Assembly (NCBI GenBank): GCA_963808525.1
Contig: CAWEGE010000014.1
Location: 52,736 to 116,735 of the forward strand
DNA: 64,000 nucleotides
Reading direction: 5' to 3'
DNA from: an uncultured Alphaproteobacteria bacterium
GTDB taxonomy: Bacteria; Pseudomonadota; Alphaproteobacteria; Rhizobiales; Beijerinckiaceae
Position numbers and translations under genes: made by a program. Of the stretch, positions 15,784 to 64,000 are shown in pieces. Position 1 is the first letter of the stretch, and every line of letters begins with the position of its first letter. Under the pieces are notes generated by a model, which made no database searches, was not told the DNA's origin, and saw only the letters and a program-made list of their open reading frames with translations.

Positions 15784-16650
15784 TCAGCAGTCGTTGCAAG
15801 GGGGCGGAGGCGGATTGCAATCGTTGCACGGCGGAGTGTTGCCGCCATTGCCGCCATGCGGCGTCGTCAGCACGCGGACCGTGGCCGCCGAGCTCTGGTT
15901 GTTCGCATTCGACTGGCTCTGCACGATTTGGCCGCCAGCCCAGAACGCGCCGAGAGTGTCCAGCCCGTTCCAGGGCCTCTGATCCTGCATCCGCGCATTG
16001 CCGAGCTGGACGCCCCCATCCGACGGCGGATTTGAGGCGCCGCCGTGTTGTCCGGTGGCGCTGGCGAAAAGCGCGTCAAGCGTCGCGAGGATACCGGGCG
16101 GGATAGGGTACGGCCGCGAGAAGCTACCGTCCGGCCGGACCCTCACCATATCGCCCGGAGGAATCGTGACAGTCGAACGCCCGTTGGTCAGGGTGACCTC
16201 GCCGTACAGCGACGCAAACAGCGTCCCCTCCGGACAGTTGAGGCAGACATAGGCCATGCCGCCGCGAACCGAGAGCGAGCCCGACGGCGTCTCGATCTTC
16301 GCGCCATCGCTATGGCTCACCGCTCCGCCGACGAAACGCAAGGCGCCCTTGGCCAGCGTCGCGGACTGCGCGCCGACGCCTTGATTGCCGTTGTAAACGA
16401 ATTTGTTGATCGTGACCGAGCTGCCGTGGCCGATCGTCATCGTCGACTTGTCGAGAAAAACGATCTGCGCGGACCCATCCGCATTGGTGGTGATCCGCTC
16501 TCCTCCCGCGACTCCGGCGCCGACGGAAAGCTTGCGACCGCCAGCCTCCGCGGACTGATTCACCGCGCCGACATTGCCGACCGTCTCGGCGAGCGCCGAT
16601 CCCGCGAAGGCGGCGCAAGCGGCGAAGAGAAACGCAAGCAGTATCTTCAT
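15784..16650 (-). CDS. Exported FecR-domain protein with low-complexity, Cys-repeat tail
   Basis: Signal peptide; ERITTNADGSAQIVFLDKSTMTIG..S.V.I and IETPSGSLSVRGG are FecR-like; ends PPCNDCNPPPPPCNDC. Confidence 0.8.
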   Translation of the reverse strand: MKILLAFLFAACAAFAGSALAETVGNVGAVNQSAEAGGRKLSVGAGVAGGERITTNADGSAQIVFLDKSTMTIGHGSSVTINKFVYNGNQGVGAQSATLAKGALRFVGGAVSHSDGAKIETPSGSLSVRGGMAYVCLNCPEGTLFASLYGEVTLTNGRSTVTIPPGDMVRVRPDGSFSRPYPIPPGILATLDALFASATGQHGGASNPPSDGGVQLGNARMQDQRPWNGLDTLGAFWAGGQIVQSQSNANNQSSAATVRVLTTPHGGNGGNTPPCNDCNPPPPPCNDC

Positions 16651-16664
16651 CTTCGTCGTCCTCT

Positions 16665-18042
16665 TCAGAACTTCGCCACGGGACCGAACACGACGGAGAA
16701 GTCGTTCATCTTGAAATTCTGGATGTTCAAGTCGTTCCTCAAATACTCCAGATGGCCGGAGAAGCCCCATCGCGCGCCGATCGGCGCGTCGAGCGCGGCG
16801 CCGTAAGTCCAGGCGTCGTCGCGGCGCGCGCGCCACGGGTCGACGAGAAAATTCGGAGAATCGAAAGCCGTCTGCATGAAGCGCGCATAAGGCGCGATCG
16901 TCCAGCGGCGCGGGATTTCCGGCAGCGGCGGATCGAACTCGAAATGCAGCATCGCCTGCAAGTCGATCGTGTCGGAGGACTGCGAGGACACAACCGCGTT
17001 GGCGCGGGAATAGGCTCCTCGTCCTTCGAGCCTCACCGTGTCGTTGAAGCGATAGAAGACATTGAGCGAACCGGTGTAGACGTCGCCCGAGGCCAGCGTT
17101 GCCGCCGTATGCGCCGCGATGCTCCAAAGCTGCGGGCCGCCGTTATAGACATAGAGGCTGCGATATTCGAAGCCCGGCTCCAGCGAGAAATCGCGGCCGA
17201 AATTCTTGCGGAACGTGATGCCGGCGCCCCCATCGTTGAGATAGTTGACGTCGCCGAGGACCGACGCCGCGCCAGTGATATAGGGCTTAACCGACAGTCC
17301 CGGCGCAATCTCGAAATCGCGGTCCGGCCGTGCCGGCGAAGAGCGCGACGTCATATTCCGGCAATTTGAACTGCTGCGTCGCATAGATGAGGCCGTGCAT
17401 TTCGAGCGTCGGGCCGCCATGTCCAAGGAAATCCCAGTCGATACCGCCCTGAGCGAGCTCAAAAGTGTTGGCGTCGGAGCGCTGCCTGGCGAGCGAGGTC
17501 GTCTGCACCCCGCCCACGCCGAAAAGTCCGCCGGCCGGGAAGTAATTGGCGTTGGACTGAGAACGGATTCCGATCTGAAGGCTGCCGAAAAGCCGTTTAT
17601 CCTTTGTAGCCTCCTCGATATCGGGCAGCTGCGCCTCGATCTGCGCCTTTTGCGCGGAGTCGAGGTTCGGCTCGTCCAGCGCACGCTTCAACTGCACCGC
17701 GGCGCTGGTGTCCGCGCCTAGCCTTGCATACAGATAGCCGAGCTCCTTGCGGGCGCGGGCGAGGTCTGGGTTGAACATCAGCAGGCGCTGCAGCGCGCTG
17801 ATCGCCTCCTCGTCGTAGCCGAGCCGCGTCGCGAGCCGGATAAAGGCGTAAGTCTTCTCGTAGTTGGTCGGGTCGAGGCGGATCTCGTCGGCGAGACGAT
17901 CGAACTCGGCAGATGGGTCCTGAGCATCCTCGAAGGGACTGACCACCGGAAAGTCAACCAGCGCCTGCGCGCGCGCGCCCTGCGCCGCCGCGGCGAGGCC
18001 CGCGATCAACACGACGCATAAAGCTCGGGGTGCACTGGTCAC
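16665..18042 (-). CDS. TPR + outer-membrane beta-barrel protein (Slam/DUF560-like), frameshift near 17315
   Basis: GTG start with GGAGG; signal peptide; TPR (AISALQRLLMFNPDLARARKELGYLYARLG); amphipathic beta-strands; terminal Phe (VFGPVAKF). An extra T in CGATTTCGAG splits the frames. Confidence 0.7.
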
Positions 18043-38013: not shown

Positions 38014-38516
38014 ATGCCGCTAGAAGTCAGGACTTCCCAATGCGGCTGCGGGCGCGTTCGCTGCGAAAGCCGCGGCGAGCCGATCCTCTCCGTCGTCTGC
38101 TACTGCCTCGACTGTCAGGAAGGCGGCCGGCGCATCGAAGCGCTGCCGGGCGCCCGCGCGTGCTCGATGACGACGGCGGCGCACCTTATCTCCTCTACCG
38201 CAACGATCGCTTTCGCTGCGTTGCGGGCGAGGAGCTTCTCGTCGACCATCGGCTGAAGCCGAATTCGCCAACGCGCCGCGTCGTCGCGAGCTGCTGCAAC
38301 TCGGGGATGTTCCTCAAATTCGATCCGGGCTTCTGGGTTTCGAGCTATCGCCATCGCTATGATGGCGAGCTGCCGCCCATCGATATGCGAACGAACGTCA
38401 GGAGACGCCGCGCGACGACGCCACTGCCGAGCGACGCGCCTTGTTATCGAAGCTTCCCGTTAAAGCTGATCGCGAAATTGATCGGCGCGCGGGTCGCCAT
38501 GCTGCTCGGACATTGA
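38014..38516 (+). CDS. GFA/CENP-V-like Zn-binding protein, frameshift near 38155
   Basis: CGCGRVR, CYCLDCQ and TRRVVASCCNSGMF in two successive frames. Confidence 0.7.
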
Positions 38517-62459: not shown

Positions 62460-62740
62460 TCAAAATCTCGGGATCAGGCGCCAGCCCACTCTTTTTTCAT
62501 AATCGGCATGGCCGGGCAGAGTTTCTCGATAAATTCTTTTTGTCGAGAAGACGCCAGACGAGCGCGGAAAGTATCAGCCGAGCGCGAGTGGGATGCACAG
62601 CAGCATGAAGAAGGCGGCCGCATACATTGGATAGCGCGAGAGCGCATAGGGTCCGCTCGAGACGACCCGCTGGCCCTGCGCCATCTCGATCGTGCTCGCG
62701 GCCCAGGGATTTTCTCGAAGGACGAGGAACATCGTGCGCG
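62460..62740 (-). pseudogene. C-terminal remnant of an isoprenylcysteine carboxyl methyltransferase (ICMT/PEMT) family gene
   Basis: LRENPWAASTIEMAQGQRVVSSGPYALSRYPMYA...PLALG* then ALVWRLLD...LPGHADYEKRVGWRLIPRF*; in-frame stop, frameshifts and no N-terminal half. Confidence 0.75.
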
Positions 62741-62952
62741 CAGCGCCAAGCTTGGCATGGAGGAGAACTCCGCGGCTTAGACAGCGGCAAAAGGCTCTGA
62801 CTTGCGATGCAAATAGGGGACCCGTGACAAGCGAACCAGCATTCGCCAAAGCATCGCTTGACACGCTATCTCGCCGTTCCACGTCGACCAGGTGGTCGCG
62901 ATCGCAGACGCCACGCTGAACGATCGCCCGGCGGGATTGAGGGAGACGAGGC

Positions 62953-63195
62953 ATGCGCGCGCTGGCTATAATTTTCTTGAGTTTAGCCGTGACGCCTGCG
63001 GTAGGCGATACTACGAAATTGACGGCGTTGCTCGCTCCCAGCGGGGCGACGGCTCCCTACTCTCCAATCGTCAAAGCCGGCGAATGCTTCACGAGCTGCT
63101 ACAGCGGAAGCGCGCGAAACGACTGCGCCTCAGGGCAGACGTGCAGCTGCTATTGCGATGGCAGCGGCCGAGCGATTTGCGAGATTTGCCGATAG
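62953..63195 (+). CDS. 80-aa exported peptide with eight C-terminal cysteines
   Basis: GGGAG/GAGG RBS; signal peptide ending AVG-D; CFTSCYSGSARNDCASGQTCSCYCDGSGRAICEICR. Confidence 0.75.
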   Translation: MRALAIIFLSLAVTPAVGDTTKLTALLAPSGATAPYSPIVKAGECFTSCYSGSARNDCASGQTCSCYCDGSGRAICEICR

Positions 63196-63199
63196 GGCG

Positions 63200-64000
63200 C
63201 TACTTTCCCTTCGGAAATTCGAGCCCCATTTCGCGGTAGCGCTCCGGATCGTCCGCCCAGTTCTCGCGAACCTTCACGAAGAGAAAGAGGTGGATCTTCT
63301 GGTCGGCGGCCTCCGCGATCTCGGCGCGCGCGGTCTGGCCGATCGCCTTGATCGTGCGGCCGCCCTCGCCGATCGTGATTTTCTTCTGTCCGTCGCGCGT
63401 GACATAGATCGTCTGCTCGACCTTCGCCGAGCCGTCCTTCTGGTTCGTCCAAGAGGTCGTCTCGACAGTCGATTCATAGGGCAATTCGTCGTGCAACCGC
63501 TCGAAGAGTTTTTCGCGCGTGATCTCGGCGGCGAGCATGCGCAGCGGCGCGTCCGAGAGCTGGTCTTCCGGATAGAGCCAGGGCGAGAGCGGCATCGCGG
63601 GCGCGAGCCGCGTCCGCAGCCGGTCGAGCCCGTCGCCCTTCTGCGCCGAGATCATGAAGGTTTCTTCGAAGTTTTGCGCTTCGTTGAGTTCCTTAGCGAG
63701 GGCGAGCAGGCGCTCGCGCGCCACGACGTCGACCTTGTTCAGGACGAGCCATTTTGGCGCGGGACTCTGGATCAATTGCTGGATCAGCGCCGAAACCTCC
63801 GCATCCGCGCCCTTGCGCGCGTCGACAATGAGCAGATTGAGGTCGGCGTCCTTGGCGCCGGACAGCGCACTCGCGACCATGGCGCGGTCGAGCCGGCGCT
63901 TGGGGGCAAAGATCCCCGGCGTGTCGACGAGCACGATCTGAGTCAGGCCTTCGATCATCACCCCGCGCACCTGAGCGCGCGTGGTCTGCGCCTTGCGCGA
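63200..64000 (-). CDS. era: GTPase Era (5' end outside the window)
   Basis: QTTR (G2), VDTPGIF (G3), LNKVD (G4), ISA, and KH domain with ELPY and LFLFVKV. Confidence 0.97.
   Translation of the reverse strand, partial: SRKAQTTRAQVRGVMIEGLTQIVLVDTPGIFAPKRRLDRAMVASALSGAKDADLNLLIVDARKGADAEVSALIQQLIQSPAPKWLVLNKVDVVARERLLALAKELNEAQNFEETFMISAQKGDGLDRLRTRLAPAMPLSPWLYPEDQLSDAPLRMLAAEITREKLFERLHDELPYESTVETTSWTNQKDGSAKVEQTIYVTRDGQKKITIGEGGRTIKAIGQTARAEIAEAADQKIHLFLFVKVRENWADDPERYREMGLEFPKGK

Follow-up and report, generated by a model that had tools for sequence, protein, structure and literature searches.

Much is known about the small, disulfide-rich exported proteins of eukaryotes and about a few bacterial toxins of this kind, but in environmental Gram-negative bacteria such proteins are poorly catalogued. 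Several described systems resemble the locus presented here in part. The heat-stable enterotoxins STa and STb of E. coli are made as precursors with a Sec signal peptide, a pro-region and a Cys-rich C-terminal peptide that is oxidised by DsbA. The domain encoded here is predicted to resemble knottins in its density of disulfides, its size (about 35-40 residues) and its short beta strands, and like many knottin inhibitors it is plausibly a scaffold for stable binding. The cis-defensins are likewise small and exported, with a CxxxC motif followed later by CxC, and eight cysteines fall within the defensin range. With EGF-like domains the domain would have in common a pair of small, consecutive beta hairpins cross-linked by disulfides, and a C-x-C followed by a further Cys about 7-8 residues on. 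A different chemistry is found in the Cys-rich metal-binding proteins, with which the protein described here has CxC and CxxC motifs in common. Csp1 of methanotrophs, found in Alphaproteobacteria, is a Tat-exported, extracytoplasmic four-helix bundle of about 120 residues, while bacterial metallothioneins are cytosolic.

Here, we analyzed an 80-codon ORF in a stretch of 64 kb of DNA from an uncultured alphaproteobacterium; this whole stretch is referred to as the window. The encoded precursor of 80 amino acids is composed of a Sec-type signal peptide, a linker and a C-terminal domain with eight cysteines (Table 1). In its layout it comes nearest to the STa and STb precursors, since these too are Gram-negative precursors of roughly 70-80 residues without a dedicated modifying enzyme. 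However, there is no sequence similarity and no match to an enterotoxin family of Pfam, the number and spacing of the cysteines differ, and the host here is a soil bacterium. The heat-stable enterotoxin precursors are the closest functional analogy, and one of architecture only. From Csp1 and the metallothioneins the family differs in its Sec-type signal, its size of about 38 residues for the domain, its even number of cysteines and its predicted all-beta structure.

Table 1. Sequence features at the locus of the eight-cysteine protein (positions are those of the window).
Feature	Position	Strand	Remarks
Promoter-like element CTTGACAC-GCTATCTCGCCGTTCCA-CGTCGA	62857-62887	+	Conserved in copies
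Shine-Dalgarno GAGGGAG	62939-62945	+	7 nt 5' of ATG; read directly from sequence
80-codon ORF	62953-63195	+	ATG 62953, TAG 63193-63195; translation MRALAIIFLSLAVTPAVGDTTKLTALLAPSGATAPYSPIVKAGECFTSCYSGSARNDCASGQTCSCYCDGSGRAICEICR
Signal peptide, residues 1-18 (MR / ALAIIFLSLAV / TPAVG)	62953-63006	+	Rule-based
Linker or possible pro-region, residues 19-42 (DTTKLTALLAPSGATAPYSPIVKA)	63007-63078	+	pLDDT 46-58
Cys-rich mini-domain, residues 43-80 (GECFTSCYSGSARNDCASGQTCSCYCDGSGRAICEICR), and TAG	63079-63195	+	Invariant Cys; pN/pS 0.24
era (GTPase Era)	63200-64000	-	NF000908, 274.5 bits (cutoff 237); runs off the window end

The protein has its eight cysteines at C45, C49, C58, C64, C66, C68, C76 and C79, and the pattern C-x3-C-x8-C-x5-C-x-C-x-C-x7-C-x2-C (spacing 3-8-5-1-1-7-2) is exactly as given in a preliminary description of this DNA, whose coordinates for the ORF are exact as well. 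With eight Cys in 36 residues it ranks first in the window among 592 stop-to-stop segments from all six frames (60 amino acids or longer), where the runner-up has seven Cys and the median is two. The Cys density of the ORF exceeds chance. Two further statements of the preliminary description hold as well. The ORF has a ribosome binding site of its own, which is kept at the same distance in all close copies (as GAGGGAG, GAGGAG, TGGAGG or TGGGAG) and has its counterpart in an AGGAG or AGGAGG located 6-9 nt 5' of the ATG in distant family members. It also lies tail-to-tail with era, whose identity is confirmed by NF000908 and whose stop codon (63200-63202, minus strand) is 4 bp from that of the ORF.

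Composition alone would not call this ORF a gene, because its GC content by codon position (0.47/0.64/0.69) is atypical in comparison with the approximately 0.65/0.45/0.85 of host genes; conservation does. The overall GC content is 59.7% against 64.5% for the window, and GC3 is 0.69 against 0.72-0.89 in host genes. A search of 5.8 billion proteins returned five homologs with 69-86% identity, and their DNA together with that of one MAG yielded seven distinct orthologous sequences. All seven are exactly 243 nt long and free of indels, with a pairwise dS of up to 1.9. The variable columns are distributed 35/26/62 over the three codon positions, pairwise dN/dS values range from 0.12 to 0.40, and the pooled pN/pS in the reading frame is 0.35. 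Constraint is strongest in the Cys domain, whereas the signal peptide and the linker have pN/pS values of 0.42 and 0.48, respectively. In the control frames pN/pS was 1.10-1.61, with the exception of the antisense frame that shares the wobble position, and this frame contains stops. Unlike the indel-free ORF, the DNA directly upstream has accumulated many indels and replacements. Judged by these comparisons, the 80-codon ORF is a real and selectively maintained gene. A 115-aa ORF on the plus strand (62892-63239) and the ORFs on the minus strand were rejected as candidates, since pN/pS exceeds 1 or stops occur in those frames.

A chance open frame in GC-rich DNA might also be preserved by a non-coding function that overlaps it, for instance as the 3' UTR or terminator of era or as an antisense RNA. 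Such an explanation could draw on the atypical codon-position GC and the GC3 below that of host genes. It could also draw on the closeness to era: the two stops are 4 bp apart and no intrinsic terminator was found between the genes, so that transcription of either one is expected to continue into its neighbor in antisense. In addition, one copy (L010, from a Logan assembly) starts with GTG and is interrupted at codon 62 by an in-frame TAG, after which the frame continues. Either the assembly is in error here or the copy is a recent pseudogene; in the latter case, the gene would be dispensable in at least one lineage. However, a non-coding function accounts poorly for a three-base periodicity with a low pN/pS in this frame only, for the lack of any indel across 243 nt at such high dS, or for the conserved start codon and ribosome binding site. 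Moreover, distant homologs of 31-46% identity keep all eight Cys and their own ribosome binding sites in unrelated contexts, and Rfam has no match to the ORF, nor to any family anywhere in the whole window. We consider the non-coding alternative largely refuted by the comparative data and its probability very small.

To find more distant relatives, we made an HMM of the close homologs and ran it on 1.84 billion representative proteins. At a threshold of E<=1e-3 it returned 13 matches, 11 of which are true clusters of small proteins. The other two (P0010 and P0013) are long profile matches to Cys-free repeat proteins and were discarded as false positives. The 11 clusters are 31-46% identical to the window protein and 67-101 aa long, apart from one of 223 aa whose start seems to be mis-called; family matches have profile E-values from 6e-35 to 6.5e-4. 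Most of the clusters have a signal peptide and the linker is variable, while the C-terminal core is common to all. In an alignment of 14 sequences (A5; the window protein is the first row here and in A2 and A3) all eight Cys positions are strictly conserved and G43 almost strictly, with the domain consensus S-x-I-I-K-A-G-S-C-S-x-x-C-x-x-G-S-A-x-N-D-C-x-x-G-Q-S-C-S-C-Y-C-D-G-x-G-x-A-V-C-x-x-C. The Cys spacing is nearly invariant, with exceptions in a second loop of nine residues, a sixth loop of nine residues and, in one tandem paralog, a third loop (C3-C4) of 13 instead of five residues. The family signature can be written as a signal peptide followed by G-x-C-x3-C-x8-9-C-x5(13)-C-x-C-x-C-x7-9-C-x2-C, and the window protein shows both parts. 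Thus, homologs with conserved Cys spacing, the absence of which the preliminary description had named as a refutation, do exist. Its remark that such small ORFs are often missed by annotation does not apply to the homologs, as these are present in collections of predicted proteins, three of them under the JGI name 'hypothetical protein'.

The distribution of the family is narrow. Among 185,579 GTDB species representatives only one has the gene, an uncultured alphaproteobacterial MAG, and the protein databases contain about a dozen clusters (at 50% identity among the 1.84 billion representatives), nearly all of them metagenomic. The GC content of the DNA bearing family members spans 53% to 65%. 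Indexed sequencing runs that contain this stretch of the window are soil-metagenome DNA only, with zero variation within the ORF, and for the L001 variant, too, the index lists no RNA run. No record was found in an exact-sequence look-up of the window protein, and Pfam and NCBIfam gave zero matches to it at E<=10. For all 15 members, Pfam at E<=1 returned two unrelated matches, each to a single member, and none that is relevant. PADLOC had no match, the best PHROGs match had an E-value of 0.012, a profile search of the PDB sequences gave no match at E<=10, and tblastn with the window protein and one distant member found nothing in 72,556 plasmids. A literature search for a bacterial family of this kind returned only Cys-rich proteins of fungi, plants and nematodes. 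By these searches this is a rare and previously undescribed family of soil and wetland bacteria, alphaproteobacterial wherever the host is known.

The signal peptide and short linker of the preliminary description are recognizable by rule and conserved in relatives. The N-terminus combines a basic n-region, a hydrophobic h-region within the usual length of 10-12 residues and a c-region whose positions -3 and -1 are small, and by this rule the protein is a predicted substrate of Sec and signal peptidase I. The hydrophobic core of the window protein reaches a maximum Kyte-Doolittle mean of 2.9, within the 2.2-3.3 of the h-regions of close relatives. Cleavage is predicted between G18 and an Asp, where position -3 is A and position -1 is G or A; in close relatives the site reads ALG|E, AMA|E or ATA|E, such that A-x-G/A followed by an acidic residue is conserved. 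The signal peptide contains no twin-arginine motif. It also has no lipobox of the form [LVI][ASTVI][GAS]C, and none of the members places a Cys where cleavage is predicted (residues 16-20), which argues against a lipoprotein; the sole Cys outside the Cys domain among the members is one in the h-region of P0012. The linker is less constrained than the Cys domain (pN/pS 0.48 against 0.24). It contains two semi-conserved motifs, [ST]-x-[RK]-L-x-A-[LM] and I-[IV]-[KR]-[AIV]-G, and one trimmed member apparently lacks it.

What the cysteines do is suggested by their parity. Sec export hands an unfolded chain to the oxidising periplasm, where DsbA acts. The number of Cys among members is always even, namely eight, or six in one variant (P0004) that was found in two independent JGI samples and has lost C66 and C79 together. 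In P0016 C66 is lost and one Cys is gained elsewhere, and in general loop lengths vary while the Cys positions stay fixed. The Sec-type signal, the even parity and the fact that C66 and C79 were lost jointly favor disulfides over metal-thiolate clusters, and four disulfides in an exported domain are the favored reading of the sequences, with C66-C79 likely being one of the pairs.

The preliminary description had also proposed a metal-binding peptide, and a periplasmic metal-thiolate protein that buffers or traffics Cu(I), Zn, Cd or Hg through its Cys and some His ligands has several features on its side. The motifs CxxxC, CxCxC and CxxC are all present, the domain is neutral to acidic, and an accessory, mobile character would suit a resistance gene. 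In the subclade L008-L010 the loop between C68 and C76 contains H-D-H, and L008 has a C-H-C in addition. These His residues, however, are not conserved across the family, and periplasmic metal proteins usually use Met or His. Metallothioneins and other metal-thiolate proteins have reduced Cys and are cytosolic or exported by Tat, which the Sec-type signal without twin-arginine motif and the even parity do not match. The loss or gain of Cys in pairs, the confident AlphaFold2 fold obtained without metal and the lack of a metal transporter, sensor or oxidase nearby in any context examined speak against metal binding as well. We regard this role as improbable.

Structure prediction, which had been put forward earlier as a check, gave a confident all-beta model. 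AlphaFold2 assigned the Cys domain a pLDDT of 86-92 in the full-length model and a mean of 84 in a domain-only model. The predicted strands 44-49, 52-57, 66-68 and 74-76 form two short beta hairpins, and there is no helix. The model thus suggests a four-strand mini-domain that apparently represents a new fold. Foldseek retrieved nothing significant from the PDB with the full-length model (best E 2.6, an unrelated protein), and the domain-only model gave best E-values of 2.3 against the PDB, again an unrelated protein, and 3.2 against BFVD; the sensitivity of Foldseek is limited for domains of around 40 residues.

This model, together with the sequence searches, allows a comparison with the eukaryotic-type scaffolds. 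In the CS-alpha-beta fold of the cis-defensins the helix carries the CxxxC motif and is linked by disulfides to a beta strand with CxC, whereas here no helix is predicted and C45-x3-C49 lies in the strand 44-49. Membership in the cis-defensins was rejected on the basis of the missing helix in the model, the lack of a sequence or fold match in the PDB and the net charge of -1. Knottins have six Cys in contrast to the eight found here, and the C-x-C-x-C core is unlike the usual knottin loop pattern. Their knot arises from the disulfides I-IV, II-V and III-VI; for the present family the sequences hint at a single pair, C66-C79, through the paired loss in P0004. No knottin fold was retrieved by Foldseek from the PDB, a search of limited sensitivity at this size, and the likeness to knottins may be taken as a functional analogy only. 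EGF-like domains are separated by a Cys spacing that deviates from the EGF signature and by the absence of any EGF or laminin-EGF match in Pfam or, by sequence and fold, in the PDB. Of the preliminary description as a disulfide-rich secreted peptide, the parts that stand are the real gene, the exported-type signal, the conserved Cys and the favored disulfides. The label 'defensin/knottin-like' is not supported, given that no sequence or fold match was retrieved from the PDB, the CxxxC sits in a strand in a model without helix, and the domain is not cationic.

The charge of the domain bears on a second proposal, a secreted antimicrobial or toxin-like peptide, such as a Sec-dependent bacteriocin or an anti-eukaryote effector, or else a diffusible signal. 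Here, the order of signal peptide, pro-region and Cys-rich C-terminus seen in the heat-stable enterotoxin precursors would be the model, and this pre-pro-mature layout is accompanied by a semi-conserved basic residue three positions before the first Cys. Tandem paralogs in L015, mobile-element neighbors of some members and a patchy distribution, which is typical of competition genes, would fit equally. However, the net charge of the Cys domain ranges from -4 to +2 across members, and this neutral to acidic character argues against a cationic membrane-active peptide; the domain is not amphipathic either. No immunity, exporter or receptor gene recurs alongside, Pfam, NCBIfam and the PDB contain no toxin, bacteriocin or defensin match, and the close clade has the gene in a housekeeping locus. 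An antimicrobial or signaling role thus appears quite unlikely to us.

A stand-alone function is in line with the neighborhood of the gene. In the close clade it is convergent to era, the last gene of a pdxJ-acpS-lepB-rnc-era cluster, with synteny in L001-L004. Upstream follow a PEMT/ICMT gene, a protein of 372-383 aa, DUF4424 and an SMR transporter. The neighbor of 383 aa in the window has a weak match of the dimethylargininase type, far below the cutoff. In the window genome the PEMT/ICMT gene is a decayed remnant that has lost its first ~123 codons and contains an internal stop, and beside it the ORF, its ribosome binding site and the upstream element are intact. No modifying enzyme is found among the adjacent genes, namely the PEMT/ICMT remnant, the 383-aa protein, the SMR transporter and era, as had been noted before, and L001-L004 agree in this. 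Within about 10 kb, radical-SAM genes are represented by rlmN alone, some 8 kb away. A RiPP precursor (sactipeptide, SCIFF or lanthipeptide) was rejected because no maturase, be it a radical SAM enzyme, LanM/LanB/LanC or a cyclodehydratase, is adjacent and the N-terminus is a Sec-type signal.

The junction between the ORF and its surroundings carries traces of repeated change. When the window is compared with L001, L005 and L006, homology resumes one base before the ATG, with 207 bp in the window taking the place of about 915 bp in L001. In L007 the 3' end of era has left a 77-bp relic with 88% identity to the genuine sequence. Relic and original make up a direct repeat, between whose arms lie the promoter, the ORF and the 191 bp that follow. 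L009 has an era 3' relic right after the ORF, and in a sister contig the ORF and era are separated by two additional genes. In the soil runs that contain window DNA, other era variants occur on contigs that part from the window sequence immediately past the era stop, and hence the ORF is not universal at this position. These alignments indicate that the ORF/era junction has been rearranged repeatedly. Distant members are unlinked to era; L015 contains two tandem paralogs, and serine recombinases (resolvases) are adjacent in L014 and in L018/L019. No recurrent partner gene is common to L014, L015, L016, L018 and L020. From its patchy distribution, lower GC3, rearranged junction and the recombinase neighbors of distant members, the gene behaves as an accessory gene.

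The gene also seems to bring its own promoter. Just 5' of the ribosome binding site lies a conserved block of approximately 45 nt (about 62849-62897) that contains the promoter-like element. This element can be aligned in each of the seven copies long enough to include it, despite unrelated or indel-rich surrounding DNA. Read as a promoter, it would have TGACAC at -35, for which several relatives show TGAAAC, and CGTC at -10, separated by 17 nt, in general form TGAMAC-N17-CSTC. In the compact versions L008-L010 the element abuts the ribosome binding site, which is the position expected of a promoter. We are confident, from its conservation and placement, that the element is a promoter. Its class is more difficult to assign. 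The -35 also resembles the CTTGAC of alphaproteobacterial sigma-70 promoters, while a scan with the generic sigma-70 consensus found no promoter. For ECF sigma factors the promoter consensus is a -35 tgaAAC and a -10 CGTC (PMC5758882), and CGTC is typical of many ECF groups, with a spacer of 16+/-1 (PMC3426412). Only three of the eight aligned copies have CGTC at the -10, the other five having CCTC or ACTC, and an assignment to the ECF class on these motifs is tentative and somewhat doubtful. No sigma-factor gene is present among the few window genes scanned, and the element of the close clade is not clearly present 5' of distant members.

We favor, with moderate confidence, the view that the locus is an independently transcribed accessory gene for an exported, four-disulfide, stand-alone binding or inhibitor module. 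Expression would probably start from the conserved promoter, possibly one of the ECF-sigma type that responds to envelope stress. The 80-residue precursor would leave the cytoplasm through Sec and be cleaved behind G18 by signal peptidase I, and in the periplasm the Dsb system would oxidise it. The product would be a compact all-beta mini-protein of about 38 residues with four disulfides, C66-C79 probably among them, and the less constrained 24-residue linker at the N-terminus may act as a pro-region. Because there is no enzyme or partner gene, the mini-protein most likely acts alone as a stable extracytoplasmic binding or inhibitor module, rather than as a membrane-active cationic peptide. 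This role is reached by elimination and is in our opinion the most likely one.

A bolder version would see in the family a new disulfide-rich fold and a horizontally mobile bacterial counterpart of the eukaryotic effectors of the knottin and defensin type, which binds or inhibits a foreign target and is expressed from an ECF envelope-stress promoter. Possible targets would be a periplasm-acting enzyme of a competitor or predator, or the receptor-binding protein of a phage; ice or mineral surfaces, contacted via the Ser/Thr-Cys-Ser/Thr strands, could be envisaged too. We think that this version is unlikely. For the favored module, the strict eight-Cys signature, the predicted fold without structural neighbor and the lack of a Pfam, NCBIfam or PDB entry make the family of interest, even though its distribution is narrow and its present value moderate. 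A domain of ~38 residues should be accessible by synthesis or by expression in the periplasm of E. coli, and might provide a new scaffold for stable mini-proteins. If the upstream element is an ECF promoter, it would in addition offer a handle on the envelope-stress regulon of uncultured soil Alphaproteobacteria; the strict pattern of the element occurs only twice in the 64-kb window.

The micro-gene, encoding the 80-aa exported eight-cysteine protein, and era, the gene of the GTPase Era on the opposite strand, converge with their stop codons 4 bp apart (window 63193-63202). A search of both strands detected no intrinsic terminator between them. With this arrangement, transcription of either gene should continue antisense through its neighbour, except where Rho brings it to an end.

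This junction with era is not shared by all related organisms in the same soils. In the soil metagenome runs X1, X3 and X4, several contigs are about 85-90% identical to the 3' end of era in the window (63208-63280) and part from it at 63208/9, just past the era stop, which indicates that related organisms in these soils do not carry the micro-gene beside era. Relics of the era 3' end accompany the gene at two of the loci with close orthologous copies (Table). At L007, the relic forms a direct repeat that encloses the promoter-like element found upstream of the micro-gene's RBS, the gene itself and 191 bp of the DNA following it. This suggests insertion or duplication of a cassette at the era 3' end, although the contig is short (973 bp) and an assembly artefact is possible. 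The sister contig of L009 carries two extra genes, of 161 and 92 aa, between the micro-gene and the real era. The distant family members, which are unlinked to era, have other neighbours: those of L014 and L018 adjoin serine recombinase or resolvase genes, and this suggests that they are carried on mobile DNA.

Table. Features at the micro-gene and at related loci
Feature	Location	Strand	Remarks
Serine recombinase/resolvase genes adjoining distant family members	L014 112-678 and 2711-3286; L018 928-1521		
era 3' end relic as direct repeat	L007 182-257 and 890-966		77 bp, 88% identical to real era 3' end
era 3' relic joined to micro-gene	L009 598-653, and sister contig in JGI 3300075153		
TTGAAAC-like repeats, four or five	L007 302-362		period ~12-15 nt, upstream of conserved promoter-like element
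Decayed PEMT/ICMT-family methyltransferase	window 62463-62735	-	partial alignment to 225-aa L001 homolog
Eight-cysteine gene copy with GTG start	L010 2284-2526		Logan contig
Tandem paralogs of eight-cysteine family (n=2)	L015 865-1140 and 1273-1518		

The L007 repeats upstream of the promoter-like element, and AT-rich TTnAAAG motifs in L001, L005 and L006, may be binding sites of a regulator. Further upstream in the window lies the methyltransferase remnant, which aligns to residues ~124-224 only of its L001 homolog (60% identity) and contains a stop inside the frame after IPLALG as well as a scrambled stretch. Here 207 bp replace the 5' half of the L001 methyltransferase gene and about 550 bp of intergenic DNA. 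The 126-aa ORF at window 62574-62954 (-) is this remnant with a spurious extension.

The L010 copy has an in-frame TAG at codon 62, where the other copies have CAG, and beyond it the frame stays open as far as the usual stop codon. Either this copy became a pseudogene recently or the contig contains an assembly error. In the first L015 paralog, the C3-C4 loop comprises 13 residues instead of 5.

Other reading frames were considered as well. A 115-aa ORF (window 62892-63239, +, other frame) spans the whole micro-gene and is judged non-coding, since pN/pS in its own frame is 1.36. The cysteine-rich plus-strand segment 15762-16103 was rejected as spurious, being antisense of a secreted protein (15784-17127, -). 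This secreted protein has an internal start at MKILLAFLFAACAAFAGSALA and an unusual motif, PPCNDCNPPPPPCNDC, at its C-terminal end. A cysteine-motif gene at window 38014-38516 (+) seems split across two frames. An 80-aa ORF starting MPLEVRTSQCGCGRVRCE...VCYCLDCQ is overlapped by one of 158 aa, which carries what looks like the C-terminal part (...ASCCNSGMFLKFDP...). The gene may be frameshifted, or the split may stem from an error in sequencing.
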